IMG/VR virus record: IMGVR_UViG_3300037454_000146 | Coordinates: 35,374-99,373 of that record | DNA length: 64,000 bases | Strand: one strand, 5' to 3' | DNA from: a virus | Shown here: positions 11,390 to 61,064 of the stretch, in pieces | How the letters are laid out: each line of letters starts with the position of its first letter | Position numbering within the stretch: position 1 is the first letter of the stretch | Notes under the pieces: generated by a model | Databases searched by the model: none | Seen by the model: the letters and a program-made list of their open reading frames with translations, nothing else | What the model was told of the DNA's origin: nothing | Translations under genes and position numbers: made by a program

Positions 11390-14300
11390 TTATCTGCGCG
11401 GCTTGAATACCTGACTTTCGGTCAGAACCGTCTGCATATAGGATTCCATTTGTCTCGCGAATTGCTCCGCGTTCTGTACGTTGGGGAGATTGATTACTGT
11501 GCCGTTAAATGTGACCGCGTTTGCCGTGTCGGATTTCTTGCCCAAATTCTGTGCGATTCGCATATTGCCCGTAATAGCAGAAGGTGTTAGCGCGGGAGAG
11601 TTGTGTAGCGCATTATAGAGCTTTGCCGCATCGGTCGAATTGAGCACGAGCTCGGGGCGTTGCTTTGTTCCGTGGAGCATTGCAAGTCCCGTATAAGTAT
11701 TCACTCCGCCGTCTGCGTATGCGCCTATTTTTCGTAAATATGCGTCCCAAGCCGAATTAACATCTTGATTATACTTAGACAAATCTTCTTTAACGATAGC
11801 TCTCCTAATACCATATTCGTCTACCTCTAACCTATCAAGTCTCTTTTCAATATCGTCTATGCGGTTGTCATAAGAAGAATAGTCCATACCCGCAACAGAC
11901 TCATTGAGTTCATCTTGGGCTTGAGTTAATTTGCTTATGATAGTCGAATACTTTTTATAAAACGAATCAAGATTTCGAGCCATATCGCCCTCGTCACTAC
12001 CCATGCTTAATGAAATATTGTAGGCTTCTTTATAAAAATCTTGAACCGAGTCTTTGGCTTCTTTCGCAACATTTTGCACCTTAGATTTGTATTCTTGCCA
12101 TTTCTTAATTTCTTTATCAACGGCTGCAATCTGTTTGTTTGAGGCTTCGATACTCTTATTTACAGCCACCATTTCTACATTAGAAACACGACTGAGCTCG
12201 TCGGCATACTTATCATATTCCGTTTCGTAATCATTAAGAATATCTAAGTCCTGCTCGGCAATCTTATCACGCCAATCAGCACCAAGTATCTGCTCGGCAA
12301 GTCGCTCATCTTCTGCTTTTTGCCTTTTTTGAGTAACACCTTCCCATTGTTTCAGATATTCCTCTAAGACCTTAATATCTTGATTAGCTTGCGCCTTATC
12401 TACTTCCCGTTGAGCCTTATCAATATCTGACTTCTTAGCCTCATACTGCCAACCGCCCGCTTCTGTATAGGTACGAACTTTCTTGTTTTTAGCATTTTCG
12501 AGATTTGCAAGTTTCTCCGCGAGGTCAAGAGCTTCTTCACGCTCCTCGTTCTGCTCCTTAATTGCTTCAATCTGTTCCTTGATAGCGTTTTGAACGGTAT
12601 TTGCAACCTTTTCGTAATTCTCAGTAATTTCTTCGAGAGCGTCTTTCTGTTCCTGCAAGACCGTGAGTTGCTCCTCCATTGCTTCTTTAGAGGCTTCAAT
12701 AGCAGATTTTTCAGCTTCATAACCCTCTATAACGGAATCAATTTTGTATTCCTGTGCCTTTAAAAGAGTGTCCGCTTCTTCATTGAGTTCTTTAGTAAGA
12801 TTGTTAAGCGCTTGCTGACGGTCTACTGTGTCACCAAGACTTCCGTTGTAATATTGCAACACAACATTATTGCGATCCCAATCCTCTCCAATCTCAACAA
12901 CTTTTTGTTCTGCCGTCTCTAACTGATTCTGCAATTCAACGTATTGATAATAGTTAGGATTGTGAGAGTTTTTACGCATTTCAGACCACGTGTTCATTTC
13001 AGCCCGAATTGAAGCTACTTCTTCTTGCGCGGCTTTTTTAGCATTAAGCAACTCAATTTGTTTGAGCTCTATAGATTGAATTTGTTTTTGAATATAAGCA
13101 TCTTTCAGGTCAATAAGTTGTTGCTCTGTGACTTTAAATTGTCCACTAATACTATCAAAACTTGCAGGACTTAAATATTTAGTGCCTAATTCGTCATCCA
13201 ACTTATACAAGTCCATAAATGCATCTCTGTCAATACCGTTGCCATTAGCAAGCGTCTGAAGTGCTGACTTCATAGCGTCGATATTCTTTAACGTCGTTTT
13301 CTTTAATTCGTCATAGCTTTCATACCAAGCCTCAGACATACTTTCGATTGCTGTAATTGCACCAGAAGCTCCTGTTTCAAAGGAAGAAAACAATGAATCT
13401 ACGTCTTGTTGCAAAGAAGGATAGTCTGCCCCAATTTTATTTAGCTCTTGCCTAATCTCATCAAGGCTTTGCGCCGCTTGTCTCTTTTTTATAGTGGTAT
13501 TATCACCCGCAATAACGTGATTTAATTCTTTGGCTTTATCAATCAAAGAATTGTAATTATCTAATACGTCTTGTGGAACTTCAAACGAATTATAATATTT
13601 GGTTTGACGCTCCATTTGGTCGGCATCGGCTTTATCAACTTCATATTTTGCTCTTGCCGCTACGTATTGCGCCATTAAGCCCTTATAAATATCTTCGTCA
13701 TATCCGTCGATTTCTTTATAAGTGTCGGCTATTTTTTTCCAGCCCTCAACTTGCTCCTCTAAAGTACCCATAACTGCAATGTCAGCTTCTTTGCCCCACA
13801 TATCAGTAGCTATATGGTCAAAAGCAACCCCTGTGTCATGGAACAGCTTTAACATATTAGACAAGTCGGTTGTTGTATCGGCTTTTATCTTTGCACGATA
13901 AAATTGAGTTGAATCAGAATCGGCAATTCTTGCATTTTTGTCAGTACCCTCAAGCGATTCAACGGCTTGTTTGTACCTCTTTTGATTTTCGGTATCGAAA
14001 ATGTAATCTTCAACCTTTTCTTTTTTTAACTGTCTTATCTTTTCAATTTCTTCCGATAATTTGCCATTAACCAAATCAATACCCTCGGCTTCTTCGCCAT
14101 ATTTGGATATTAATTCGCCTTGCATTGAAGATAATTCCTTTTGGATTCCAACTAAATCATCTGTAGAAGTATAAAGTTGAAGGTATCTATCCATTATTGA
14201 ATCTAACGAATTGATTTCCTCGCCCATAGCCTCTATAGATTGATGACCAGAATCGCGCAACTCTTTTGCGGCTTCAGCAGCTTTTTCTTCTGCGTGATAC

Positions 14301-14623
14301 CACTCGTCAATTTGTTTAACAACTAATGATAAAGCATAACTTAACCCAAATGATATAGCCGCATTAAGAGCTGCGGTTGCAACTTGTAATGCAATAGTCT
14401 TAGCACGAGCAACCACGAGGGATTTGACATACCCGCCCATTGTTGCTTCTGCACCATTAAGCCCTGATAGATAATTTTTTAGTCCGACATTCGAGCCGCT
14501 AATCTCATCATCAAAAGCCTCTTGGACATATTTAGCTTTATTAAGAGAATAGTTATAATCGTCTAAACTCGTTGTTATCTTCTTTATATCATTGCCAAAT
14601 TTACTAATGTCAGAACCGAATAT
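11390..14623 (-). CDS. tail tape measure protein, exon 2 (1,077 codons)
   Basis: No Shine-Dalgarno before ATG 14626. In frame with exon 1 after the predicted splice at 14624/14623. Long coiled-coil with hydrophobic helices near the N-terminus (TIALQVATAALNAAISFGLSYALSLVV). Confidence 0.7.
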   Translation of the reverse strand: MFGSDISKFGNDIKKITTSLDDYNYSLNKAKYVQEAFDDEISGSNVGLKNYLSGLNGAEATMGGYVKSLVVARAKTIALQVATAALNAAISFGLSYALSLVVKQIDEWYHAEEKAAEAAKELRDSGHQSIEAMGEEINSLDSIMDRYLQLYTSTDDLVGIQKELSSMQGELISKYGEEAEGIDLVNGKLSEEIEKIRQLKKEKVEDYIFDTENQKRYKQAVESLEGTDKNARIADSDSTQFYRAKIKADTTTDLSNMLKLFHDTGVAFDHIATDMWGKEADIAVMGTLEEQVEGWKKIADTYKEIDGYDEDIYKGLMAQYVAARAKYEVDKADADQMERQTKYYNSFEVPQDVLDNYNSLIDKAKELNHVIAGDNTTIKKRQAAQSLDEIRQELNKIGADYPSLQQDVDSLFSSFETGASGAITAIESMSEAWYESYDELKKTTLKNIDAMKSALQTLANGNGIDRDAFMDLYKLDDELGTKYLSPASFDSISGQFKVTEQQLIDLKDAYIQKQIQSIELKQIELLNAKKAAQEEVASIRAEMNTWSEMRKNSHNPNYYQYVELQNQLETAEQKVVEIGEDWDRNNVVLQYYNGSLGDTVDRQQALNNLTKELNEEADTLLKAQEYKIDSVIEGYEAEKSAIEASKEAMEEQLTVLQEQKDALEEITENYEKVANTVQNAIKEQIEAIKEQNEEREEALDLAEKLANLENAKNKKVRTYTEAGGWQYEAKKSDIDKAQREVDKAQANQDIKVLEEYLKQWEGVTQKRQKAEDERLAEQILGADWRDKIAEQDLDILNDYETEYDKYADELSRVSNVEMVAVNKSIEASNKQIAAVDKEIKKWQEYKSKVQNVAKEAKDSVQDFYKEAYNISLSMGSDEGDMARNLDSFYKKYSTIISKLTQAQDELNESVAGMDYSSYDNRIDDIEKRLDRLEVDEYGIRRAIVKEDLSKYNQDVNSAWDAYLRKIGAYADGGVNTYTGLAMLHGTKQRPELVLNSTDAAKLYNALHNSPALTPSAITGNMRIAQNLGKKSDTANAVTFNGTVINLPNVQNAEQFARQMESYMQTVLTESQVFKPRR

Positions 14624-14660
14624 CATATATTAAAAATCGTTTTTTTATTTGATTTTTAAC

Positions 14661-14689
14661 TTGACAAATTAGAAAATATTTGTTATAAT
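14661..14689 (+). promoter_or_regulatory. consensus sigma-A promoter for the zinc-ribbon gene
   Basis: TTGACA (14661-14666), 17-nt spacer, TATAAT (14684-14689). Confidence 0.7.
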
Positions 14690-14714
14690 ATAATAGAAGA
14701 AAGGGGTTGATGTT

Positions 14715-15230
14715 ATGAAAAATAATCTTATCAACGAAATTAAAAAATATTCAATCGCAGATTTAAAGATTATATTAGACACTCAACAAGATTTATATAC
14801 CATTGACGAGATGAACATTATTAGAGATTATTATGAAAAGTGTAAAAATGAATACATATCTAAGCACACACCAAAGCTAATCCCTTGCCCTAAATGTGAC
14901 GCGCAAAATGATTTTAATTCTACAACTTGCACATATTGTGGTCAACCTATAAACAACAAACCTTATTTAGATAGAATATGCAACGAAATGCTTGGGATTA
15001 TAACCGCAGAAGATGTGAAAGACGACAACGATGATTATAATGGCAAATCCCCCTCGTTCTTATTCCAGTATATAATCAGCTTCATAATACCTCTTATTGG
15101 TTTAATTGTAGGTGGCGTGTTTATTGCAAGCGATGACGAAGATAAGAACGCGTCGGGCAAGATTTGTATTGCGATTAGCATTATATCTATCATTGTAAGC
15201 ACCACTCTATATGTTTTAATATCAAAATAA
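14715..15230 (+). CDS. zinc-ribbon membrane protein (moron; possible exclusion or defence factor)
   Basis: CPKC...CTYC zinc ribbon and two C-terminal TM helices (FLFQYIISFIIPLIGLIVGGVFI; ICIAISIISIIVSTTLYVLI). AAAGGGG RBS. Opposite strand to all flanking late genes. Confidence 0.6.
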   Translation: MKNNLINEIKKYSIADLKIILDTQQDLYTIDEMNIIRDYYEKCKNEYISKHTPKLIPCPKCDAQNDFNSTTCTYCGQPINNKPYLDRICNEMLGIITAEDVKDDNDDYNGKSPSFLFQYIISFIIPLIGLIVGGVFIASDDEDKNASGKICIAISIISIIVSTTLYVLISK

Positions 15231-15234
15231 CCTC

Positions 15235-15263
15235 TTGACAAAATCTCTTGCTTGTGCTATAAT
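15235..15263 (+). promoter_or_regulatory. consensus sigma-A promoter for the repeat RNA and toxN-like gene
   Basis: TTGACA (15235-15240), 17-nt spacer, TATAAT (15258-15263). Confidence 0.7.
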
Positions 15264-15292
15264 AACCTTGCGGAGCAATCCGCACCGTGTCG

Positions 15293-15382
15293 TGTCGCTC
15301 CCGATTAGCGTCTAATAAATCATCGGATATGAATGTTTGTCGCTCTCTGATATGCGACTAATAAATCGTCAGACTCAAATCT
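15293..15382 (+). ncRNA. candidate type III antitoxin RNA: two imperfect ~45-nt tandem repeats
   Basis: Repeat units start at 15293 and 15338. Both begin TGTCGCTC and share the core GCG(T/A)CTAATAAATC(A/G)TC(G/A)GA. They lie between the promoter and the toxN-like ORF. Confidence 0.55.
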
Positions 15383-15408
15383 AAAGCCTTGCCTAATCGC
15401 AGGGCTTT
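15383..15408 (+). terminator. hairpin between repeat RNA and toxin ORF (attenuator-type terminator)
   Basis: AAAGCCUUGC-CUAAUC-GCAGGGCUUU, a 10-bp stem with one G.U pair. Only a weak U tract follows. Confidence 0.4.
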
Positions 15409-15425
15409 ACTATTAGGAGTATTTT

Positions 15426-15878
15426 ATGATTACAGGTCACTTCTATTTTCTCAAGCCAGAATATACACAACAATTTGCAAATCCAAAGTTTATGAATAAC
15501 AATGAACATAACCGCCCGTATTTCTGTGCCTTTACAGAGGATAGCCACATCTTTTGGCTTGTGCCGATTTCCTCTAAAGTGGATAAATTTGAACGTATTT
15601 ACAACAATAAAGTTGGTCGTTATGGTAAGTGTGACACCATTGATTTCTGCCACATCCTCGGCAGAAAGAAAGCGGTTTTAATCCAGAATATGTGTCCTGT
15701 AACACAAGAGTTTATTTTGAATGAGTATAACGATCCGCATGGTAAGCCAGTACAACTTTGTGAGAAAGTGCGCAAGCGCATTACTCATAAAGCAAAGAAA
15801 GTCCTCGTTCTTCACCGCAAAGGCGTTGACCTGTTGTTTGGGGACGTTCTAAAAATTAAAAAAGAATTATCAAAATAG
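15426..15878 (+). CDS. ToxN/AbiQ-family (type III TA) endoribonuclease toxin-like protein
   Basis: 150 aa. N-terminal FYFLKPEYTQQF, then NRPYFCAF...IFWLVPISSKVDKF. This resembles the ToxN/AbiQ pattern (FY..S.KY..YL ... Y.APLTSPK.K) as recalled from memory. TAGGAG RBS. Preceded by tandem repeats and a hairpin. Confidence 0.65.
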   Translation: MITGHFYFLKPEYTQQFANPKFMNNNEHNRPYFCAFTEDSHIFWLVPISSKVDKFERIYNNKVGRYGKCDTIDFCHILGRKKAVLIQNMCPVTQEFILNEYNDPHGKPVQLCEKVRKRITHKAKKVLVLHRKGVDLLFGDVLKIKKELSK

Positions 15879-15884
15879 TTGAAT

Positions 15885-16475
15885 ATCGTACCCCTAATTC
15901 CATTCACTGAGACTGAATTATGAGGTGATGAAAAAATGAGTTTTGTTTATAAACCCGTACACGTTAGAGCATATTATCGTATACGTTACGGCGCACTGGA
16001 ATATGTGCGTGAACACTATCGCTCATATCCCATAAGATAATGGGAGTTCACCAGTAATTTGGTCAGGATTCAAACTCTTTAATCCAGTGGACGGAACTAA
16101 GGGTACGATTTTTCTGCTTTCTCCACGCTTGCAGTAGCGCAAAACAATAGGGGAGAATCCTCTTTGAAACCAACGCATTTCTGCGCCTATGGACTATATC
16201 TTTGTGGTGTTACGCCACAGCTTCTTTTAGTCTCTGAACCTTCCCTTGCGGGCTTGGCTGCTGATTAACCGTTAAACAACCTTTAGCTTTTGAGCATGGG
16301 TTATCCGCATAATTTTTTCTGCTTTCGCAACATTCACGCTTGCAACCAGTGGTTGCTACGTTGTAGTCTACGCGGCTTTGGGTACTTCCAGCAATTAAAA
16401 AGCTCATTTGTGAGGGACGTATCACCCCGCAACAATTTCGTAACAATGCGAGGTTAGGCATATTCGGTTAGGTTT
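15885..16475 (-). ncRNA. group I ribozyme core and peripheral stems
   Basis: Minus-strand elements: P AAUUGCUGGAAG (16396-16385), Q AAUCAGCAGCC (16266-16256), R GGUUCAGAGACUAAA (16240-16226), S AAGAUAUAGUCC (16202-16191). GNRA hairpin CCCGCAAGGG (16252-16243). A 17-bp closing stem pairs 16109-16093 with 15901-15885. Confidence 0.75.
15936..16040 (+). CDS. possible 34-aa basic peptide (MSFVYKPVHVRAYYRIRYGALEYVREHYRSYPIR)
   Basis: GAGGTGA 7 nt upstream of the ATG. Lies inside a peripheral stem-loop of the intron on the opposite strand and may be fortuitous. Confidence 0.2.
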   Translation: MSFVYKPVHVRAYYRIRYGALEYVREHYRSYPIR

Positions 16476-18989
16476 ACCTATCCCTTTGAAGCTGCCGACA
16501 GCGGCGAGCCCTGTAAGTAAAGTCGGGAGTGTCCCGAACTTGTCGATGATTTTTGTCAGTATCTCTAAAAACTCTTTGGCGGTGTCTACCACGCCCTTAA
16601 TAAAGTCGCTACCTACGACCGTCTGAGCGAGGTCTTGGTATGCCGCCTTTAAGCTGTCAATAGAATACTGAATCGACTTCGCGTATTCTTCTTGCTCGCG
16701 ACGTGCAGAGCCCGCAGAACCCTCGGCGGTCTTGTAAACCTTTTCAAGCAACTCGCCGTTTTCGAGGATTGCCGCACCTATATTCGACTGACGTTTGCCA
16801 AATAGCTGCTCAAGAACTGAGCTTCGCGAGAGGTCATCAAGTTGACCCCACACCTTAGAGATTTCGAGAAGAATCTGATATGTTGATTTATATGTTGTGT
16901 CGTCAAGCTGAATGTCTACGCCTGTAAGCGCAAGCATCTGCTGTCTGAGCTTCGATATATTTTCAGCCGCACCCTCTGCATCCTCACCAATCTGTTCAAG
17001 CTCTGTCTTGGTTGAACGGAGACGAAGTGATACGGTTTTGATGCCCTGTCCGACAGTGGTCGGGTCTTGGGCGACAGTGTTTGCCGTGGTGATAAGCGCT
17101 ATACTTTCGCTCAGAGTGTTATTTCCAGCCGCTAACGCGGAAGCAGAGCGTTTGAGAGCCTCACCTATACCACCAGAAGATATTGCGAAGTTATTGCCGA
17201 CTTCGTTAAATTTGTCTACAATTTCTATCGAGTTCTGCGCCTCTATATTAAAGGCTTTCATCGTAGACACTAAATCTTCTGCCGCTTGTGTTTCAGTTAT
17301 GCCGTCGCCGACATTCTGATAAAGTATCGCAACCTTACCGAGCTCCTCCGCGTCGGGCAAAGATTCACCCAGTCGTGCAAAGGTGCTTGTGGCGTTGATT
17401 ACGTCGGTTATGCTCGCACCGAGCTCTTTGGCGGTATTGCCCGCAGACTTCTGAAATTTTCTGAAATCTTCTTCGGTCGCTTCAGTAACCTTGCGAAGTT
17501 CAACCATTGCCGTGTCAAGCGCCGTTACCTCGTTTACCATATCTCTAATCTGCCTCTTGACAAAATTAAAGACCATATTCGCGGTAATGTAGCTCGACAT
17601 TAGTTTGAATGAATTTAAGAATTTACCCCAAGCACTTTCACCTTTGAGTCCTGCGGCTTCAGCCTCTTTACCAAAGATGCGGAACTCCTCGCCAAGATGT
17701 TTAACTTCACTCGCGCTCAAATCCGCGCCTTTCGCCATACGAGATGTCAAGTCCGCCCACTTGGAGGCGAAAGTTGTGCCGTCAGACATTTGCTTGGTAG
17801 AATCTATGGCTCTCTTATTAGCAGAAGCATACGCTTGCATATCTGCTGAGAGTTTCTTAATCTTATTAGATAAAGAAGTTTCTCGACTAAGAGCCTTTTC
17901 TTCCTTTTGAGCCGCCTTTAAACCATTGGTAATATCTTGAATGGCTTGGCTTACTTCTCCATATTTCTTACTCCATTCTAAGCCACGACCAGATTCACTT
18001 TCAATCCGCTGCAACTCTACGAGATTTTTACTTGCATTTGCAAGATTGTCACCCAAAGACGATTTCGCGGACTCATCTGATAGAGCATCTATATCTTTTC
18101 TTAACGCATTAAGCGTATTATCAAAATTTTTAGCTTTGTTAATTGCGTTATCAAATATATTAAAGGAACTTCCAGTCGATTTTAGCGACGTTCCGATATT
18201 AGCCGCAGCCGTCTTGAGATTATCAAGTGCCTTCTGTGCGGATTCCACAGAGCCAACGCCAGACTCTAAATCAATAATGGCGTTACGAGCTGTGGTCAGC
18301 GGCTCAATTAAACCACTTTCGATTGATTTGTGGCTTGCCTCGAAATTAGCAAGCTCTTTACTTAGTCTTGCTAAATCTTGCTGTATTTTGCCAACGCCCT
18401 TGTCAGAATAAGAACCACCAATATACTCAAACTTTTGACCAGTAGAATCAAGCAAGAAATTAAGTTCTCTAACCTCGCCAGAAGCAGCCTGTATTCTCGC
18501 AATTATCTTATTTATACTATCCGCCGACTCTTGATCGTTATATTTGCCTGTAACGGTAACAGTACCCAATGATGATAGGCGACTTTGTATTGTAGCCATT
18601 GTACGCTCGGCGTTGATTATCCCGTCTGCATTTGTCGCAACCTTAAACGGCTCAACAAACCTACTATCTAAATCCGCAAGCGTTTTCTTTAAAGTGAGAA
18701 CTTTGTTTGTTACAGTTTCGACACTCTTAGCAACATTCTCGATGTTTTGCGCCGATTGTCCAGTACCAGCCTGTATTTCTATTTTGGGAATATCTATTTT
18801 CAGTTTTTTAGATATTTCGCTAACTTGATTTTGCAGAGTAGCCAAACTGTTTGTGTCGAGACTACAAGCTATTGATAATGCTTTGTTGGCATCCAATCGC
18901 TTTTTAACTTCTTCTAAATCTTTTTCAATTGTACTGACGGTCTTGGGTATGTCCAAACTCGCCACTATTTCAATTCTGTTATCGTCCAT
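16476..18989 (-). CDS. tail tape measure protein, exon 1 (838 codons; TP901-type core)
   Basis: Contains NTAKELGASITDVINATSTFARLGESLPDAEELGKVAILYQNVGDG...ISSGGIGEALKRSASALAAGNNTLSESIALITTANTVAQDPTTVGQGIKTVSLRL. The unspliced frame runs 17 further codons into the intron and stops at 16422. Confidence 0.8.
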
Positions 18990-31348: not shown

Positions 31349-33103
31349 TCATCTGTAGGTTTTGGCAGGACGGGATAGGAAGAAGTCGGCAACTCCTGAT
31401 TCTTCATTTATTATACGCTTCTGTAACACCTGTTCTAATTGAAGGCATACCCACCAGTTATATTCGAGTGATGAGAAACGGTCTTTTCGCATACCAGTTT
31501 TCTCTTTTACCTTTATGTTTACACCCTTTGTCTCTGTCTGTAAATTGATAAGCTCATTTATAAGTAAGGTTGTATGAATATAAGGCATCTGTAATTCAAT
31601 CTTTTCTTGTGGAGTAAGCGAATTATATCCTCTAAACCCAGCAAGAATTTCTTCTGCATCAAACTCTGATACAAGAAGATTTATTCTGTTTTGTCTAAAG
31701 GCTTCTCTTAACGCAAGAGCCATATCATTATTTAACTGTGCCGTTGCATTGATTGCCCATATAACCTTTGGAGCTGTCTTATCCAAACATCTGTCAGCAA
31801 ATACAGAATCGTTACAACATGATAACGCTCTGTAAGTAGTTGCCAACTCATTGTCATAAATATCTCGACAAAGATGATCGTAGACAGATACACCAACACC
31901 TCTTGTATCAATTACGAGCTGCGTACAATGATATTGCTCAAACAACCTTCTCACTCTAAGAGCCAAATCTTCTGAATGTAATCCCTCATGGTTCTCAGTG
32001 TAGATTATATTACCTACATAGCGATTGTCTTTATTAGGTAACGCACTATTGATAAAAATTGATGCCGCATCGTTATCATGTTTTGTAGAAGCCAAAAGAG
32101 CAACGTCCAAAGACAAGATACGTTCCTCATTTTTAGCAAGAGGCGGTATCTTCAAATTTTTATCAGCCATTAGATTTGAAATCTGTGGCGGATATACAGG
32201 CACTTTAAGTTTTCTATTCCTTGATAAATCATCATAAGAGAATAGAGCATTTTCATCGTCACCCAACCATTCACACTCCATTTCCATTTGGAATGAAAGT
32301 TCATTGAAATCAGACTCCGACATCTCATCTTCTACCTGTTCACGACTTAGTAAATTTTCTTTAATAGCTAACTCATAAGGCAAACCACAACAGAAATATC
32401 GCTTCGTATCATCAACAAGATTGGTAGCAAAAGCCTTTAATTTCTCAAAACTCCAATGCTGTTTATACCAAGCAGACGAAAGATAAAGTTCTTTATTTCT
32501 TTCTGTTAAATGAGCGTACTCTGGTTTGCTTAAATATCTTGGTTGACGAGGCGCAGTGTTGAATTTACGCAATACCTTGTTGATAATATCAAGGTCAATC
32601 ATGCGAAATTCGTCACATACGATTATGTTGGATCTATTAGAGCGAGCACCGTCATTTGCCGTTACAACTTTTATTCGTGAGCCATTTTTAAATGATATAT
32701 ACGCATCTTGACCTTTGGTGTTAGCCGTTTCTATTTCATTTCTTAAATTTGCCGAATTTGGCATAAGAATGGTCGTTATTTTTTCAAGTACATTTATACT
32801 CTGTGAACGATTCTTTGCAGCTACGCATATTTGTGTTTCGGGATAAAGAATACATCTTACTACGCAGAATATCGCAGTAAGAAAGGTTTTGCCTTGTCCA
32901 CGCGAAGCGATGTACATGAAATAATTTGACCAATTCATTAGGAATAATAATATTTTCTGAAATAGTTTGAGATGTATATTCAGATAATCGGCACAAAACC
33001 TATGAGGATTTGCTCTGTAATAGCTACACCAAATGCCAACACCTGTCATCATGCGCTCTACTTTATCATTAGCTATTTCTTTATCAGTCTTTTTCGCCGC
33101 CAT
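31349..33103 (-). CDS. terL: terminase large subunit
   Basis: Walker A SRGQGKTF and Walker B IIVCDEF, with a C-terminal nuclease-type acidic region (LSLDVAL...VIDTRG). 584 aa. Confidence 0.8.
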   Translation of the reverse strand: MAAKKTDKEIANDKVERMMTGVGIWCSYYRANPHRFCADYLNIHLKLFQKILLFLMNWSNYFMYIASRGQGKTFLTAIFCVVRCILYPETQICVAAKNRSQSINVLEKITTILMPNSANLRNEIETANTKGQDAYISFKNGSRIKVVTANDGARSNRSNIIVCDEFRMIDLDIINKVLRKFNTAPRQPRYLSKPEYAHLTERNKELYLSSAWYKQHWSFEKLKAFATNLVDDTKRYFCCGLPYELAIKENLLSREQVEDEMSESDFNELSFQMEMECEWLGDDENALFSYDDLSRNRKLKVPVYPPQISNLMADKNLKIPPLAKNEERILSLDVALLASTKHDNDAASIFINSALPNKDNRYVGNIIYTENHEGLHSEDLALRVRRLFEQYHCTQLVIDTRGVGVSVYDHLCRDIYDNELATTYRALSCCNDSVFADRCLDKTAPKVIWAINATAQLNNDMALALREAFRQNRINLLVSEFDAEEILAGFRGYNSLTPQEKIELQMPYIHTTLLINELINLQTETKGVNIKVKEKTGMRKDRFSSLEYNWWVCLQLEQVLQKRIINEESGVADFFLSRPAKTYR

Positions 33104-34166
33104 TTACAGCACCTCCAAACACTGAGTCAAAGAGAGCTTCATCATCGCCTTCATACTGCGGTTTCTCAACCTTATACTTTGCCATTTCTTCGTCATACAT
33201 TCGTGCATAATTGTTTTTTATACCAATCATCTTGCACAAATGTCCTAAGAAATAAACCGTAATATACTTTACAATGCCGTCCACATCTTTCCATTCAGGA
33301 TCGGGTTCTGGTATTGGTTTTTCTTCTTCAAATTTCTTTATCAGCGTTCCAAAACTTTGACTATCAGCAAGAGCATTATCATTGTTTTGTACAGGTTTCA
33401 GATTTGCAGAACCAAGTAATGACTGGAATGTGTCCATAGCGTCTTTGACTTTGCCACCCGTTTGTTGTGCTATTTGAATATTCAACTGAGCTATACAAAG
33501 ATTTTTGAACAATTCTTCTTGTGCCTTTGTCTTTGCTTCGCATCGTGCTGTCCAGTCATCATATTGTTCTTGCAAGAATTTGTATTGTTCCATACTATAT
33601 CCCATACCAAACATAGATATAGTTTTCTTCCGCACCTTTAAATCTGCAAGGTCGTCTTTGGCATCTATCAAATCTTCTGCGTCGTTTATGTTGACACTCG
33701 CCCTTTCTTTGATAGTATCAAGATATGTTGTGCCTCTTTGTTTATACTGAGGAAGTTGCATCTTACTCGGATATGCTCCTATACGCGATCTATCAGATGA
33801 TATTTTTCTGCACGAAGCCAATATATCATCTGCATAATACCAGTCGAAAATTTGACACATACGGTCAACAGCTTTTTCTTCATTGCTCGAATAAAAATCC
33901 GTTAATGTATGAAAATATTTATCTACGCAAGTTTTACATATTGTAGTATAACCGCCATTTCCCGCAAATAGAGGACTATTTGAAAAAGGGAAGTTGCCCT
34001 TTTGCTTTGTGTATTTTTTGCCGCAACAAGTACAATAAAACTCTGTTCTTTCTTCTTCTGCCATTATACGTCCAACTTGGACATTCTTATCTATTTTAGT
34101 TTTAGAAGTGCGAGAATTTGCTGTTTTCTTCGTACTTCCTGTGTTACCTCTCGGCACTCCACTCAC
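33084..34166 (-). CDS. putative terminase small subunit / DNA-recognition protein (start uncertain)
   Basis: Overlaps the terL start by 20 nt. Basic N-terminus and a CTCCG...CKTC zinc ribbon. Assignment is by position only. Confidence 0.35.
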   Translation of the reverse strand: MSGVPRGNTGSTKKTANSRTSKTKIDKNVQVGRIMAEEERTEFYCTCCGKKYTKQKGNFPFSNSPLFAGNGGYTTICKTCVDKYFHTLTDFYSSNEEKAVDRMCQIFDWYYADDILASCRKISSDRSRIGAYPSKMQLPQYKQRGTTYLDTIKERASVNINDAEDLIDAKDDLADLKVRKKTISMFGMGYSMEQYKFLQEQYDDWTARCEAKTKAQEELFKNLCIAQLNIQIAQQTGGKVKDAMDTFQSLLGSANLKPVQNNDNALADSQSFGTLIKKFEEEKPIPEPDPEWKDVDGIVKYITVYFLGHLCKMIGIKNNYARMYDEEMAKYKVEKPQYEGDDEALFDSVFGGAVNGGEKD

Positions 34167-35077
34167 TCCTTTAACTCATTATCTAATATCTCAGAGATAT
34201 TAGAATATTCATAATATGGTATGCGAATAAGCTTAATGCCATTATCCTTGCAATATTTATCTTTAATAGCATCATGCATTTGTATTTTTTCAAACTCTTT
34301 TTCCGCCCATTCACCGCCTCTACCAGCGAAATCAATAGGCATCATGTGATGTCTCCCATCAAACTCACACAACGTATTATTATCAGGCAAATAGAAATCG
34401 AATGGCAACATATCTTTATCAGCACACTCTACAAAGCGTTTTTGTTCTTCAAAACGAATATTGTGTTCTTTAAGATATTCTGCAATTCTCAATTCGCCCT
34501 TGCTTCGATTAGCACAACCACAACTGATAATGTTTTCGGATTTTAGATTACTACCAGTCACAACAGTCATATTCCCACAGTCGCAAAGACAATTCCAAGC
34601 TGGCTCTTTTCCAATATTGCTGGCTCTACTAATAACCGTAAGAAAATTATATCTATTGCCTGTAATATCAATAAAATGTGTTTCCCTATTTCTGTCTTTT
34701 ACATAGCATCCGCAAGAACGCGTTTCACCATCGCGAAGATTACACCCTTGCACTACAGTTTCATTACCACAGTCACATATGCAACGCCACATTGGTTGGA
34801 TTCCTTTGTTAGCTTCTCTGTTCAACACAACAAGCCTTCCGAATCTTTTGCCCGTAAGGTCAATTAAATTGTTTTTACTTCTTTGACTTGTCGCTTCTCT
34901 GTTATAACAGCCACATGACTTAGTATGCCCATTTTTTAAGTTTCCACTTGCAACTACACAAGTATTACCACAATCGCATAAGCAATTCCATGCGGTTAGA
35001 TGTCTTTTATTCTCGGCTCTACTAACAACGGTCAATCTACCAAATTTCATCCCAGTTAAATCAATAAACTTTGCCAT
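34163..35077 (-). CDS. free-standing homing-endonuclease-like protein: three zinc modules plus a Vsr/DUF559-type PD-(D/E)xK domain
   Basis: Three repeats of DLTG..FGRL.V......W.C.CDCGN...V....L..G...SCGC. C-terminus has LPFDFYLP...LCEFDGRHH...IKLIRIPY. Confidence 0.6.
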   Translation of the reverse strand: MAKFIDLTGMKFGRLTVVSRAENKRHLTAWNCLCDCGNTCVVASGNLKNGHTKSCGCYNREATSQRSKNNLIDLTGKRFGRLVVLNREANKGIQPMWRCICDCGNETVVQGCNLRDGETRSCGCYVKDRNRETHFIDITGNRYNFLTVISRASNIGKEPAWNCLCDCGNMTVVTGSNLKSENIISCGCANRSKGELRIAEYLKEHNIRFEEQKRFVECADKDMLPFDFYLPDNNTLCEFDGRHHMMPIDFAGRGGEWAEKEFEKIQMHDAIKDKYCKDNGIKLIRIPYYEYSNISEILDNELKE

Positions 35078-35226: not shown

Positions 35227-36192
35227 TTAACCCCTCATCTTTTCCACAAACTGTGGTAAACTTATAGTCGGTACTCTAAAGCTAAACTCTGGCGACTTCA
35301 TAGCGTTACCATAAGCTCTCGTGACCAGTGCATCCGTCAAAAAGTATTCACACTTGCTCAGACTATTCTTATAATACTCCCGACATCTTTCAATGTATTT
35401 TTCAATGTGTGCCTCATCGTAGGTGTCATATAACTCTTGTAAATAGATATAATTTACCACAACACCGTTTGCAATAAAGGCTTGTGCAATCTCGTTATCA
35501 AGTAAATCGCGCTTTACACACTCTTGAATAAAACCGTCATTCATAGCCACGAAATCATACAACACATTAAACCGCGTCTCGGGCGACTTTGCTCTGGTGG
35601 TACTCGTCTCATTATAAAGCCATGAATAACAAACCTTATCTACCGTATGGGCTTTGGGGTCATACGCTAAGAATGTCTGATTCCACAAAACATCCTCGTT
35701 GGTACGAAGCCCCTCGGCGAAACGTATATTGTGCTTGTCAACAAATTCGCGCTTAATCAGCTTACCGTGCATCCAAGTGACTGATTCATTTGTGACATTA
35801 ATAAAAAACTTGCCGTCTCTACGGACATCATTCTCAAATGCACCACACACTAAATCAGAATCGTTTTTGATTGCGTGAGAAAGCAAAATCTCGGCAGCTA
35901 AAGACGAAGCAAGGGTATCGTCTGCATCTACAAACATTATGTAGGGCTCGGAGCTATTATCTATTCCATATTGCCGCGCCATTCCACAACCGCCGTTTTC
36001 TGGACGCACAAGAAATATAACGTCTATATCGTACTTGTTAATTATGTCAGAGTAATCAAGCCCGTCACAGTCGTCAACAACGTAAACCTGAATCCTATCT
36101 TTAATGGTCTGTATTTCGATTGAAGCGAGGGTGCGCCCAAGCGTTGCCCTTGCTTTATATGTTGGGATAATAATTGCTATCTGCTTATCCAT
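35227..36192 (-). CDS. family-2 (GT-A) glycosyltransferase
   Basis: Start at ATG 36192, 6 nt after AAGGAGA. IAIIIPTYKARATLGRTLASIEIQT...VYVVDDCD...IMFVDADD (DxD motif). Confidence 0.7.
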   Translation of the reverse strand: MDKQIAIIIPTYKARATLGRTLASIEIQTIKDRIQVYVVDDCDGLDYSDIINKYDIDVIFLVRPENGGCGMARQYGIDNSSEPYIMFVDADDTLASSLAAEILLSHAIKNDSDLVCGAFENDVRRDGKFFINVTNESVTWMHGKLIKREFVDKHNIRFAEGLRTNEDVLWNQTFLAYDPKAHTVDKVCYSWLYNETSTTRAKSPETRFNVLYDFVAMNDGFIQECVKRDLLDNEIAQAFIANGVVVNYIYLQELYDTYDEAHIEKYIERCREYYKNSLSKCEYFLTDALVTRAYGNAMKSPEFSFRVPTISLPQFVEKMRG

Positions 36193-57320: not shown

Positions 57321-58040
57321 ATGAATGCAAACGTAAACACACAGATTGACAACATGGTAGACAACAAAGAGGAAGCAATAAAACAATATTGTAATGACAT
57401 AATTAACTTCATACATCAAGACGTTAGCGGACTAAAGATAGCATGGAATATGTACTTAATAGAAGGATGCAAAGATAGAAATGTCGTGTACTTTATTGAA
57501 AATGCGGAAAATCATAATGTGAAGATAGGAAAAACAACTGATTTGATAACAAGATTAAAGAGACTACAGGATTGTGCGTCGCAAATTGGCATGCCTTTAC
57601 CCCACCTAAAATGCAGGTGTGTTATTTGTTGCTCTACTAAAAAAGAATGCCATGCGTTGGAAAAAGAACTGCATAATCGGTATAAAAGCAAGCGTTGTGT
57701 TGGGGAATGGTTTAATATTTCAATTGAAGAAATAAAAAAATATTTAGACAAATGTTATGCAGAGCCTATAATTATAAATAACATACTTGTATATTGTGGA
57801 CTTCCAGATGTTGAAGATATGGAAATGCCATTGATTATCGGAGATGACTACAATCGTTTTGTGGATTTATTGAATTACCTTAAAACTCATTCATTTGAAG
57901 AACATAATTTTTGGATAAAGAAATACTGTGGTATAACGTTTACAGAAGCAACTAATATTTATTGTCAATATAAGAATCGGAGATTGGATGATTTTATTAA
58001 AGATTTTTACGCGCCCTATCTTCCTAAAAATGACGAATAA
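57321..58040 (+). CDS. T5orf172 (GIY-YIG-superfamily) domain protein
   Basis: VVYFIENAENHNVKIGKTTDLITRLKRLQ...EKELHNRYKSKRCVGEWFNI matches the T5orf172/MUG113 pattern. Confidence 0.6.
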   Translation: MNANVNTQIDNMVDNKEEAIKQYCNDIINFIHQDVSGLKIAWNMYLIEGCKDRNVVYFIENAENHNVKIGKTTDLITRLKRLQDCASQIGMPLPHLKCRCVICCSTKKECHALEKELHNRYKSKRCVGEWFNISIEEIKKYLDKCYAEPIIINNILVYCGLPDVEDMEMPLIIGDDYNRFVDLLNYLKTHSFEEHNFWIKKYCGITFTEATNIYCQYKNRRLDDFIKDFYAPYLPKNDE

Positions 58041-58882: not shown

Positions 58883-58894
58883 GGAGTGGTTGCT

Positions 58895-59821
58895 ATGCTA
58901 GCAAACGCAAAAGAACAGTGCAACATAATAGAGATGTTTCCGCAGAACAAGCCCGACTTCTCAGCGATGATCCCTCAGAGCATACTGCCTGATACCGAGA
59001 AGGAACTCAATGAAGTTATCAGCATAGAGGATAACATGGCGGACTCCGAAGGAATGGACGCTATGAATGAGTCTATATTTAATGGCATGATTGACTATCT
59101 ATTGGAAAAAGGCAAGACAAGAGATGCACTGATGTACGTATTACAGGCGAATTTCGGAATACGCCACAGTGATCTCATTAAGCTAAAGCTCATAAACCTG
59201 ATTGACGTTGACGGAAATTTCCGCGATAAAGTTAATTGGTGCGAGCAGAAAACAAGCAAAACTCGCCAGTATGTAATTAACGATGCAGTCAAAGCGGCGA
59301 CTATTATTTATCTCAGGACTCACGCAGATAAGAAGTTGACCGACTTCCTGTTCACGGCAGAGGGGAAAAATAAGGGATATAAGAAGGCAACCTATAAAGA
59401 CGAGAACGGAAAAGTCAAGGCACTTAGAGTGAACGGAAAATTTGTCTATGAGCGCGACGAGAACGGCAATCTTATTCCAGAACCGCTACGCAGAGATCAG
59501 GCGGAGAACACCTTGAAAGATGCTCTCATTGCCATAGGCGTAAAGCTGAAGAACGACAGACGTTGCAAAGATGGTGAGTACAAACTAAATACGCACAGCA
59601 ATCGGAAATTTTACAGCGAAAAGTTTAGTGAGGTTGCTTATGAGTTAAAGGCAAGTGGAAAGCTTAATGTGGATGCCGATGTGTTAGCATTGGTACAGCT
59701 TGATTTACGTCATAGCTCAATGCAGACTACGATGCGATATAACCACAGTTTTGATAGAATAAAGGAGGTTGTTTGTCGGAATATGAACATCGGTCTTTCC
59801 GTCTTGGAGAGATACCTTTAA
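58895..59821 (+). CDS. tyrosine recombinase / integrase
   Basis: GIRHSDLIKLK (Arg), NTHSNRKF (His..Arg) and LRHSSMQTTMRYNH (His...Tyr). Confidence 0.75.
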   Translation: MLANAKEQCNIIEMFPQNKPDFSAMIPQSILPDTEKELNEVISIEDNMADSEGMDAMNESIFNGMIDYLLEKGKTRDALMYVLQANFGIRHSDLIKLKLINLIDVDGNFRDKVNWCEQKTSKTRQYVINDAVKAATIIYLRTHADKKLTDFLFTAEGKNKGYKKATYKDENGKVKALRVNGKFVYERDENGNLIPEPLRRDQAENTLKDALIAIGVKLKNDRRCKDGEYKLNTHSNRKFYSEKFSEVAYELKASGKLNVDADVLALVQLDLRHSSMQTTMRYNHSFDRIKEVVCRNMNIGLSVLERYL

Positions 59822-59948: not shown

Positions 59949-61064
59949 GTGGCAAACAAAGCGTATAAATTTAGGCTATATCCGAATGAAGAACAAAAGA
60001 TATTATTTGCAAAAACCTTTGGTTGTGTCAGATTTATCTACAATCAAATGCTTTCGGATAAGATAGCACACTATAAAGAAACTGGAATGAAACTCAATAA
60101 TACTCCTGCACAATACAAGAAAGAGTTTGAGTGGCTTAAAGAAGTTGACAGTCTTGCCCTTGCAAATGCACAAATGAATTTACAGGCTGCTTATAACAAC
60201 TTCTTTAGAACACCTAAAGTCGGCTTTCCTAAATTCAAAAGTAAAAAGAGAGATAAAGATAGCTACACTACTAATAATTGTCATTCAACTAACCAAAATA
60301 ATGGCACGGTTAGTATTATTGACGGTAAACTCAGACTTCCTAAAGTTGGTCTTGTGAGAATGCTGCAACACAGAACTATTCCAGTAACCGAAAAGATTAA
60401 GTCGGCTACAATTACAAGAACGCCATCTGGCAAATATTATGCTTCTATTCTTGTGGAGTATGACAAAATTATTCCTGAGATAGAATTATCAAAGGATAAG
60501 GCGATAGGATTAGATTACGCAAGTCATAGCTTTTATGTCGATAGTCAAGGCAGAGAAGCAGACTATCCTAAGTTCTATCGTAAGGCGCAAGACAAGCTGG
60601 CACGTGAGCAACGCAAACTTGCCAACATGAAGTATGGTAGCAATAACTACCACAAACAGAAAATCAAAGTTGCGAGAGTTCACGAAAAGATTGCAAATCA
60701 GCGTTTGGATTGGATTCATAAACTCAGTACACAGTTAGCAAACGAATACGATATAGTTTGTGTGGAAGATATAAATATGCAGAACATGGCAAAGTCACTA
60801 AAATTAGGAAAGTCAACTAATGACAATGGTTTTGGAATGTTTCGAGATATTCTTTCTTACAAACTTGCTGACCGTGGCAAAGCATTTGTAAAGATTGATA
60901 AGTGGTTTCCGTCGAGCAAGATGTGCAGGCGTTGCGGTTCTATAAACCATGAGCTTACACTTTCGGACAGAGTTTGGACTTGTAGTTGCGGAGCTACAAT
61001 CAATCGTGATGAGAACGCTGCAATAAACATAATGAATGAAGGTTTGAGAATGTTATTCTCATAA
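59949..61064 (+). CDS. tnpB: TnpB (RuvC-like RNA-guided nuclease, OrfB_IS605 type)
   Basis: N-terminus KAYKFRLYPNEEQ. RuvC residues in IGLDYAS, VCVEDINMQNM and INRDENAAINI. Zinc finger CRRCG...CSCG. GTG start. Confidence 0.85.
   Translation: MANKAYKFRLYPNEEQKILFAKTFGCVRFIYNQMLSDKIAHYKETGMKLNNTPAQYKKEFEWLKEVDSLALANAQMNLQAAYNNFFRTPKVGFPKFKSKKRDKDSYTTNNCHSTNQNNGTVSIIDGKLRLPKVGLVRMLQHRTIPVTEKIKSATITRTPSGKYYASILVEYDKIIPEIELSKDKAIGLDYASHSFYVDSQGREADYPKFYRKAQDKLAREQRKLANMKYGSNNYHKQKIKVARVHEKIANQRLDWIHKLSTQLANEYDIVCVEDINMQNMAKSLKLGKSTNDNGFGMFRDILSYKLADRGKAFVKIDKWFPSSKMCRRCGSINHELTLSDRVWTCSCGATINRDENAAINIMNEGLRMLFS

Follow-up and report, generated by a model that had tools for sequence, protein, structure and literature searches.

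A 64,000-nucleotide stretch of viral DNA (positions 35,374 to 99,373 of IMG/VR virus record IMGVR_UViG_3300037454_000146, hereafter called 'the window') raises the question of how, and to what end, a phage might carry a block of oppositely oriented genes in the middle of its tail tape-measure gene. In the part of the window between 0.2 and 49 kb, nearly all genes reside on the minus strand. Two long open reading frames (ORFs) of this strand, 16422-18989 and 11390-14626, border a 1.8-kb stretch in which the only convincing genes are encoded by the plus strand. An earlier reading of the sequence alone had proposed that these genes are the cargo of a group I intron, and that they take the place of a homing endonuclease gene. 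The usual view of group I introns is that they are selfish DNAs that are spread by homing endonucleases, and the defense genes of prophages are thought to be located between other genes.

We consider it reasonably probable that the plus-strand genes constitute a prophage moron block that is housed in the long 3′ arm of a group I intron and is removed by splicing. The transcription of the cargo, the splicing event, the timing of expression during lysogeny, and a role in defense or exclusion are all features that we infer from the nucleotide sequence and from its comparison with related phages.

A group I intron divides the tape-measure gene

The group I intron model of Rfam (RF00028) matches minus-strand nucleotides 16171-16457 with a score of 60.7 bits, compared to a gathering threshold of 50. 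This match covers the full model (positions 1-253) within 287 nucleotides. Therefore, a short intron is conceivable, and the key question is whether the cargo resides inside the intron.

The splice sites are indicated by the internal guide sequence, ACCGAAUAU-GCCUA. Its GCCUA portion (16459-16455) forms a 5-bp P1 stem with the UAGGU that ends exon 1, and the splice site is marked by a U.G pair. The adjoining portion, ACCGAAUAU (16468-16460), is perfectly complementary to AUAUUCGGU (14623-14615), a stretch that begins immediately after the G at 14624. This is the textbook P1/P10 layout, wherein the predicted ligated exons would be contiguous on the 14-nucleotide guide. A scan of the downstream 3 kb for the best guide complement following a G returned 14623, with nine of nine Watson-Crick pairs, and this is the sole candidate from the scan that maintains an open reading frame (…FKGIG/IFGSD…, stop-free, where the slash marks the junction). 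The 3′ splice site implied by the sequence-only reading is identical to the one defined by the guide. Joining of the exons generates an in-frame ORF of 1,915 amino acids with no internal stops. Spliced tape-measure RNA is predicted to carry the junction GGU/AUA, with AUAUUCGGU on the exon 2 side, to encode the junction peptide …FKGIGIFGSDISK…, and to yield junction reads of the type TAGGTATATTYGGT.

Protein look-ups, a locus search based on the toxin CptN (see below), and a nucleotide pattern that describes the guide region provided twelve non-identical loci in which the same codon is interrupted by an intron, namely the window and eleven metagenomic relatives that are designated by L numbers. 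When the same scan is applied to the relatives, an in-frame junction of the form KG[IVK]G/[IV]FG is recovered for ten of them (L003, L005, L016, L027, L037, L047, L049, L050, L052 and L057). For the eleventh (L054), a P10 of 6 bp was placed by eye. A terminal G precedes the best-pairing target in 11 of the 12 loci. The P10 strands themselves vary: the window has ACCGAAUAU/AUAUUCGGU, L005 and L027 have ACCAAAUAU/AUAUUUGGU, and L003 has UUUGAAUAU/AUAUUCAAA. For the nine distinct sequences, 93% of the P1 and P10 cells are paired, compared to 34-42% when the partner strand is slid out of place. Across the loci, four of the nine P10 pairs are altered on both sides, and the U.G pair of P1 is kept in all nine distinct sequences.

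A search of 5.8 billion protein clusters with the fused junction peptide identified single polypeptides that extend over both halves (P0001, P0029, P0030 and P0006). The same search yielded many proteins of 70-80% identity, all of which end just past KG(V/I)GK, and thus these relatives are interrupted at the same place. Uninterrupted tape measures from L007 (37% identity), L011 and Thomasclavelia phage TR-TP1 align across the junction. The apparent ATG start codon of exon 2 (14626), unlike those of most ATG-start genes of this phage, is not preceded by a Shine-Dalgarno (SD) sequence, and its G is the terminal nucleotide of the intron (omega-G). In L003, exon 2 carries no start codon at the junction. 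As judged from these sequences, the flanking minus-strand ORFs are one gene that is split by an intron, and splicing is predicted.

These data bear on the alternative that the intron is dead, such that no splicing occurs across the cargo and the gene simply yields two polypeptides with the cassette in the gap between them. A gap of 1.85 kb, the separate ORFs that are reported by gene callers, and the sub-threshold Rfam scores of one class of cores (type B, described below) would all suit a split gene of this kind. However, the compensatory changes between guide and exons, the phase-0 junctions across the 12 loci, and the covariation within the core argue otherwise, as do the lack of an SD sequence for exon 2, the lack of a start codon in L003, and the homologs that are single polypeptides. 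We therefore regard a dead intron as very improbable.

Two other placements of the splice sites were evaluated and rejected. The first located the 5′ splice site after CUAACCU (16451), based on the stem that is labeled P1 by Rfam, and it creates a phase-1 junction (...CLT/C/SDISK). The tails of the ORFs translate the string AATATGCCTA in three distinct frames (window, RICLT; L005, KYAY; L003, NMPIY). Therefore, it is conserved as noncoding nucleic acid, and it corresponds to the guide sequence. Given this guide, the stem labeled P1 by Rfam is assigned as P2. The second placement was a short intron that ends after P9 (~16170) and leads into a 51-amino-acid ORF (16023-16178). No P10 target is available for such an intron, and the best alternatives form seven of nine pairs and run into stop codons. 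The 60 nucleotides past P9 behave as conserved RNA helices, which argues against a short intron. A helix that might close the cargo loop, formed by AAAAAUCG (16113-16106) and CGAUUUUU (14639-14632), is a candidate recognized by eye only, and the equivalent region of L005, being rich in AT, is ambiguous.

Within the intron, the ribozyme takes up the initial ~370 nucleotides, and the remaining ~1.45 kb is cargo. An RNAalifold analysis of nine cores produces 85 consensus base pairs, 30 of which exhibit compensatory (double-sided) changes. The cores found at this site fall into two types that share ~65% identity. Type A is represented by the window and L027 (82% identity; 60.7 and 69.5 bits with Rfam), and type B by L003, L005, L016, L037, L047, L049 and L050 (79-98% mutual identity). 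The notion that cores of the L005 type are degenerate ribozymes, as might be suspected from their lack of an Rfam match and their mutated GACUA and AGAUAUAGUC motifs, was rejected because the changes in P7 are compensatory: GACU/AGUC is switched to GAGU/ACUC in L005, L049 and L050, which exchanges a C:G pair for G:C. The segment immediately past P9 is 90-97% identical across the core types (window 16110-16170, L005 6933-6993 and L037 364-423, each on the minus strand). This likeness despite different cores implies an exchange of entire ribozyme cores, with the common guide region on one side and the post-P9 segment on the other.

The 3′ arm carries an antisense cassette with its own expression signals

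The cargo constitutes ~79% of the intron and reaches ~16109. The sequence-only reading had limited it to the 3′ two-thirds of the intron, ending at 15884, and so had left out a third ORF (15936-16040). Otherwise its picture of genes inside a tape-measure group I intron, antisense to the host gene and equipped with their own promoters and ribosome-binding sites, is borne out by the RF00028 match, the guide pairings, two promoters that match the consensus at 12 of 12 hexamer positions and lie where it had placed them, and SD sequences on all three cargo ORFs. Perfect TTGACA-N17/18-TATAAT promoters occur nine times in the window, compared to an expectation of 0.12 from shuffled sequences. The cargo has a GC content of 35.6%, versus 40-44% for the exons. 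The cassette displays the sequence traits of a prophage moron: promoters of the host type, SD sequences of its own, a terminator-like end, a lower GC content, and genes for small membrane proteins.

The promoter at 14661 had been described as a near copy of another promoter of the phage (48103-48075), from which it was argued that the cassette is wired into phage regulation. The two do share 24 of 29 bases. However, the promoter at 14661 lacks the spacer element AAATTAGTG, and the equivalent promoters of the relatives have consensus hexamers with unrelated spacers. What these promoters have in common is a generic consensus for the sigma-A factor of the host, which indicates a strong promoter of the host type rather than a connection to phage regulation. 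Three minus-strand promoters of the window (21893-21865, 48103-48075 and 49662-49634) share the spacer motif AAATTAGTG(G/T)TATAAT, and these promoters may form a phage family in which AAATTAGTG serves as an operator or as a -16 element.

The second promoter precedes a type III toxin-antitoxin locus. The earlier description of this locus as ToxN-like is right as to the toxin-antitoxin class, and the family can be specified as CptN. The encoded protein matches the NCBIfam equivalog for CptIN systems (NF047359) with 167.8 bits against a cut-off of 90, and its residues 1-136 align with the crystal structure of CptN (PDB 4rmo, 4rmo_A; E=7e-21). Only sub-threshold matches were obtained with Pfam ToxN and PADLOC AbiQ. 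Toxicity is predicted on the basis of this family assignment. Strong purifying selection acts on cptN, as evident by dN/dS values of 0.03-0.08 in comparisons with six relatives.

The putative antitoxin RNA, cptI, consists of two tandem repeats. These were not called by Tandem Repeats Finder at its thresholds, and were recovered by a second repeat search and manual alignment. They align in register with E. rectale CptI, as represented by a primer sequence in its report (PMC4627078), and they retain the AUAAAU loop. Candidate pseudoknot stems can be recognized by eye, with S1 formed by GUCGC/GCG(A/U)C and S2 formed by CCGAU/AUCGG, CUGAU/GUCAG or CCGAC/GUCGG. Stem 2, again as read by eye, differs between copies in a compensated manner. 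The hairpin between the repeats and cptN is positioned in agreement with the published layout of cptIN loci (PMC3401426 and PMC4627078).

Members of the cptIN family carry 1.9-3.4 copies of a 40-48-nucleotide repeat and encode a toxin of ~149 amino acids (PMC3401426). In a 2012 survey, 33 of 33 cptIN loci were chromosomal and none was phage-borne (PMC3401426). A tblastn search of 50,697 GenBank phages with CptN produced no match. Searches of the same collection with the locus (megablast and tblastn) revealed nothing close, and recovered only distant, uninterrupted tape measures.

The first promoter drives, by prediction, a 171-amino-acid protein with CPKC...CTYC motifs and hydrophobic segments at residues 120-138 and 150-168. 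Its match to Pfam Zn_ribbon_3 scores 24.2 bits, which is below the gathering threshold of 27, and searches with PHROGs, NCBIfam and PADLOC were uninformative. A homolog with 47% amino acid identity occupies the same slot in L005.

Downstream of cptN resides an inverted-repeat module with a 34-amino-acid ORF. L006/L016 and a free-standing cassette of L007 encode the same peptide with 100% identity. At the position of this module, L005 carries a plain hairpin followed by a U-run terminator. Therefore, the module of the window looks like an insertion into the loop of the cptN terminator, similar to a miniature inverted-repeat transposable element. The closing stem and the run of U nucleotides at 16110-16120 are likely to be the end of the cargo transcripts. 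Because this U-run is located just outside the peripheral helices, transcription of the cargo should terminate before it yields RNA that is antisense to the ribozyme core.

The claim that the cargo includes no homing endonuclease is upheld. Representatives of the LAGLIDADG, GIY-YIG, HNH, His-Cys box and PD-(D/E)xK families are absent among the cargo proteins, where only a 13-bit PADLOC 'HEase' trace over the zinc ribbon was seen. When the endonuclease-like ORFs borne by introns of the relatives were compared to the window intron by tblastn, nothing was found below E=0.1. Likewise, the intron contains no transposase or TnpB, and the TnpB of the window is 44 kb away. The related statement that the cargo is free of minus-strand ORFs is incorrect in the literal sense, since mechanical ORFs of up to 86 amino acids are present antisense to cptN or to the zinc-ribbon gene, none of them with a Pfam match. 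An 86-codon frame antisense to cptN (15393-15653, minus strand) stays open in L005, L006 and L049. Because it has no Pfam match and the synonymous sites of cptN are saturated, this frame most likely results from the codon usage of cptN and is not a gene.

Table 1. Features of the interrupted tape-measure gene and its intron, in window coordinates.
Feature	Position	Strand	Remarks
Tape-measure exon 1	16476..18989	minus	838 codons; phase 0 end; Pfam PF10145 PhageMin_Tail, 73.6 bits
Last five bases of exon 1, UAGGU	16480-16476	minus	P1 partner of the guide sequence
Group I intron (predicted)	14624..16475	minus	1,852 nt; omega-G end at 14624; Rfam match and guide-sequence scan
Internal guide sequence	16455..16468	minus	14 nt; guide scan and pairing count
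Ribozyme core, P2 to P9	16171..16457	minus	RF00028, 60.7 bits
Peripheral helices past P9	16110..16170	minus	90-97% identical even in relatives with the other core type
Inverted-repeat module with 34-aa ORF	15885..16109	plus	~24-nt imperfect inverted repeats; ~225 nt; fold z-score -6.1
34-aa ORF	15936-16040	plus	SD GAGGTGA; phrog_21154 (PHROG of unknown function), E=2.6e-10
cptN, predicted type III toxin endoribonuclease	15426..15878	plus	150 aa; SD AGGAG; NCBIfam NF047359
Hairpin, attenuator or terminator-like	15384..15407	plus	-14.2 kcal/mol; z-score -2.55
cptI, two tandem ~45-46-nt repeats	15294..15384	plus	repeat search; 46-nt spacing
Sigma-A promoter of cptIN	15235..15263	plus	12/12 TTGACA-N17-TATAAT; TG before -10
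Zinc-ribbon protein, two C-terminal transmembrane segments	14715..15230	plus	171 aa; SD AAAGGGG
Sigma-A promoter of membrane-protein gene	14661..14689	plus	12/12 TTGACA-N17-TATAAT; TG before -10; 37 nt from 3′ splice site
First nine bases of exon 2, AUAUUCGGU	14623-14615	minus	P10 strand
Tape-measure exon 2	11390..14623	minus	1,077 codons plus stop

The same intron in related phages

Antisense cargo is present in all 12 loci. No locus is empty, none carries an endonuclease, and ten retain an intact cptN (the type-A contigs L001 and L002, which end inside the intron, are outside these counts). The sequence-only reading had envisaged that related phages might hold the same intron with cargo, without cargo, or with an endonuclease in its place. 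The first state is found at every one of the 12 loci, and copies that are cargo-free or endonuclease-bearing number zero at this site. Its further assertion that the cassette is not recent foreign junk survives on grounds other than the promoter likeness, namely this recurrence of antisense cargo and the purifying selection on cptN.

Two loci have lost an intact toxin gene. In L047 (5892-6441, minus strand), cptN is broken into three frame fragments of 49, 75 and 55 amino acids, and both the guide pairings and a gene for a 113-amino-acid membrane protein are intact. In L054 (1690-1900), the cptI promoter, repeats, hairpin and SD sequence are inverted and thus reside on the tape-measure strand. 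There, cptN has been deleted to 8 codons, and a remnant of the cptN 3′ end lies upstream in the usual orientation.

The slot that holds the membrane-protein gene in the window (slot 2) is filled in various ways. Proteins with a zinc ribbon and two transmembrane segments are encoded in the window, L005 and L052, and tail-anchored proteins of 88-113 amino acids in L006, L047 and L049. L003 has a 121-amino-acid protein with an N-terminal transmembrane segment and a cysteine-rich domain, L054 has a 48-amino-acid zinc ribbon, and L050 has nothing at this position.

No intron-minus alleles were identified among close relatives, as every match of at least 48% identity stops at the site. Genes without the interruption are limited to matches of 45% identity or lower when the junction is the query, or at 66% over the exon 1 tail in L011. 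The locus has a mosaic composition. The cptIN block of the window is 96% identical to that of L006/L016, with cores of different types and exons that are 62-72% identical. Conversely, L005 and L049 share 97% identity in exon 1 and 98% in the core, versus a wholly different slot 2 and an exon 2 identity of 61% (first 300 nucleotides), which is the background level. The start of exon 2 is at background identity in all pairs compared. By these comparisons, the tape-measure gene is a mosaic whose joint coincides with the intron.

Free-standing copies of cptIN are found antisense between tail genes in L007 (4861-5685) and L008 (2374-3023), with or without the 34-amino-acid module. Their neighbors are a 168/169-amino-acid gene and a 183/198-amino-acid gene, no intron is detectable, and the tape measure is uninterrupted at the studied site. 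These free-standing copies and the 96% identity of cptIN across core types imply that the cassette moves by recombination, with or without the intron. Therefore, the proposal that the intron serves as a vehicle for cargo is correct in that introns at this site exchange their cargo, but the cassette also travels without an intron, and no evidence of homing was found in these loci. Between the window and L027, cptIN (72% nucleotide identity) and the type A core (77%) have diverged in parallel, from which we conclude that the association of intron and cassette is old.

Might the moron have been inserted fortuitously into a region of the intron that tolerates it, where it persists without any role? 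The lower GC content of the cargo relative to the exons, the ability of the cassette to move by itself, and its occasional decay are what a neutral hitch-hiker would be expected to exhibit. Set against this are the old association inferred from the window and L027, the presence of the cassette with both core types and in many exon backgrounds, and the dN/dS values of 0.03-0.08 for cptN. A neutral passenger is, in our estimation, very hard to reconcile with these data. An accident is unlikely, given the recurrence in about a dozen divergent phages and the strong purifying selection on the toxin.

Other introns also reside in these genes. The tape-measure genes of the relatives carry up to three group I introns (as observed at L003 3691-3985 and 5403-5834, L047 1349-1662 and 3083-3513, and L006 3278-4207), and that of the window carries only the cargo intron. 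The upstream introns of the relatives contain sense-strand ORFs of 309-460 amino acids with DUF4379 zinc fingers, which are probably endonucleases. One tape-measure intron of L047 carries an IS605 OrfB/TnpB gene in the manner of an IStron, and a free-standing IS605 OrfB/TnpB gene of the window (59949-61064, plus strand) encodes a protein with 77% identity to it. Similarly, an ORF between two tape-measure pieces of L049 (2526-3488), presumably intron-borne, is 36% identical to a 304-amino-acid ORF of the window (34163-35077, minus strand). The latter adjoins the terminase region (large subunit, 31349-33103) and is a possible free-standing homing endonuclease.

A model for the expression and function of the cargo

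In the model that we favor, the RNA polymerase of the host would read the plus strand from the two sigma-A promoters whenever the tail operon is silent. The products would be the zinc-ribbon membrane protein, CptI RNA, the CptN endoribonuclease and the 34-amino-acid peptide, and the transcripts would stop at the structured element and U-run before the ribozyme core. Processed CptI pseudoknots would hold CptN inactive, and the toxin would be freed when the supply of CptI fails, for example upon infection by another phage or upon loss of the element. The membrane protein would be a candidate superinfection-exclusion factor, and it might act along with CptIN in exclusion, abortive infection or addiction.

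When late transcription of the tail genes begins, the resulting pre-mRNA would include the cargo in antisense orientation, and the ribozyme, located 5′ in the intron, would fold. Through P1 and P10, the guide sequence would then align the exon 1 end with the exon 2 start located 1.85 kb away, and two transesterification reactions would excise the cargo. The 9-bp P10, which is unusually long, may offset the 1.85-kb distance between the splice sites.

The contribution of CptIN could instead be one of addiction. In this case, the locus would cause post-segregational killing that keeps the intron or the whole prophage in place, with freed CptN being more stable than CptI, and so would replace homing. 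We treat this as a serious rival because cptIN systems have toxin-antitoxin and plasmid-maintenance activity and displayed no anti-phage effect in one reported test. Specifically, E. rectale CptIN supports the maintenance of plasmids, according to PMC4627078, and the only test of anti-phage activity was negative (PMC3401426). It is also in keeping with addiction that none of the 12 loci has an endonuclease, that no empty copy is seen, and that close tape-measure relatives are all interrupted at the site. However, the intron persists with intact guide pairings in L047, where cptN is decayed, and in L054, where it is deleted, and the same cassette exists outside of introns in L007 and L008. On balance, we find addiction unlikely as the explanation for this arrangement, though well short of implausible. 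The two functions are not mutually exclusive, and addiction may complement defense.

The antisense orientation might itself serve a regulatory purpose, either because transcription of the cargo damps leaky expression of the tape measure in lysogens, or because the excised intron, being antisense to cptI and cptN, titrates the antitoxin or silences the toxin upon activation of the late genes. Such a role could account for the antisense orientation in every locus with an intact cassette, for two perfect promoters that face the tail operon, and for a cargo terminator that is located just short of the core. However, the free-standing copies are also antisense to their tail neighbors, and orientation is therefore a property of the moron rather than of the intron. 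Furthermore, the cptI array of L054 is inverted. Regulation by antisense RNA is thus an improbable explanation.

Several observations weigh against the proposal that the cargo is a spliced-out prophage moron with a defensive role. In the window, the two halves of the putative cargo terminator stem are ~175 nucleotides apart, unlike those of a canonical intrinsic terminator. Two strong promoters directed head-on into the tail operon should hinder transcription of the tape-measure gene. Lysogeny is only suggested, by an integrase-family match that scores 27.2 bits against a Pfam cut-off of 27.1. The type B cores range from no hit to 44.4 bits with Rfam, below the gathering threshold, and rest on covariation. 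A search of the 5.8 billion protein clusters with the membrane protein returns only the protein itself and no informative homolog, and its single-sequence AlphaFold model (pLDDT of 61.5) is too poor for a fold search. Finally, E. rectale and R. torques have cptIN loci that behaved as toxin-antitoxin pairs but gave no resistance to six coliphages in E. coli (PMC3401426). A defense role for the family is therefore hypothetical.

A broader interpretation can be offered only tentatively. The intron lineage may have given up homing, such that it now persists by means of cargo that either pays for or enforces its retention. The 3′ arm would then be a heritable defense slot, situated within an essential structural gene, that always holds a toxin-antitoxin pair of type III and an exchangeable small membrane protein. 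Its contents would be swapped by recombination through conserved intron sequences, which would also provide a joint for the shuffling of tape-measure halves.

Other features of the window

Past the structural and replication genes, the window includes a region in which genes occur on both strands. A GIY-YIG/T5orf172 protein is encoded there (57321-58040, plus strand). The integrase-family match noted above is to a tyrosine-recombinase-family protein (58886-59821, plus strand). Transfer RNA genes are present at 63.5-63.9 kb, and this region is compatible with a prophage end.

Significance and comparison with known systems

If confirmed, these findings would add self-splicing introns to the hiding places of anti-phage or addiction cargo. 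If the interpretation of the 3′ arm as a defense slot is true, such introns would represent a previously unrecognized class of defense or addiction islands in phages. Pipelines for gene calling and for the discovery of defense systems would miss or misannotate these sites, as here the tape measure is split into 2-4 ORFs. Confirmation would also offer a natural test of how an intron persists without an endonuclease. In addition, it would provide an example of ribozyme-mediated splicing across 1.5 kb of oppositely transcribed foreign DNA, which could be of use for concealing payloads in engineered phages. An intron with toxin-antitoxin, defense or moron cargo was not found in the searchable full-text literature, a body of text that leaves most subscription journals outside.

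Phage group I introns with a 3′ or peripheral ORF include those of T4 nrdD/sunY, Twort and SPO1. They resemble the intron of the window in being ribozymes of essential genes that have a compact 5′ core, a long insertion, and a remote 3′ splice site that is defined by P10. However, their insertion is a sense-strand gene for a homing endonuclease or is lacking, whereas here it comprises an antisense toxin-antitoxin locus and small proteins with their own promoters, SD sequences and terminator. IStrons likewise combine a 5′ core with kilobase-scale cargo other than an endonuclease gene before the 3′ splice site, and splicing across such cargo has been demonstrated experimentally for them (10.1101/2023.11.20.567912). 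Their cargo (tnpA, tnpB and omega RNA) permits transposition, whereas the cargo described here has no mobility function and occupies a fixed site, and the boundaries of its intron display no transposon ends. CptIN systems share with this locus the order of a promoter, two ~45-nucleotide repeats, a hairpin, and a CptN of ~150 amino acids. They differ in that none is known to have been described inside an intron, and in that some copies here have a module with a 34-amino-acid ORF in the terminator.

Well-known examples of prophage morons and superinfection-exclusion genes come from lambda, P22 (sieA), lactococcal phages (Sie2009) and TP-J34 (Ltp). Morons are low-GC units of promoter, gene and terminator, as the cassette of the window is in its sequence features. 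They are embedded in late operons and expressed independently of these, and they often encode small membrane or abortive-infection proteins (PMC10883804). Morons normally reside between genes, whereas this one would lie inside a coding sequence, where it is presumably tolerated only by virtue of splicing. Eukaryotic group I introns can also house a gene that is unrelated to mobility or is encoded by the opposite strand. For example, rps3 resides in an intron of the fungal mitochondrial LSU gene. Antisense homing endonuclease genes are carried by introns of nuclear rDNA (PMC3679873). These cases are from other kingdoms, and their cargo is a housekeeping or endonuclease gene rather than a toxin-antitoxin cassette with bacterial promoters. 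Thus, all the parts are of known kinds (a group I intron, a CptIN system and a moron), and what is new, to our knowledge, is the fixation of antisense, self-promoted cargo without a mobility function in an intron lineage that is free of endonucleases.

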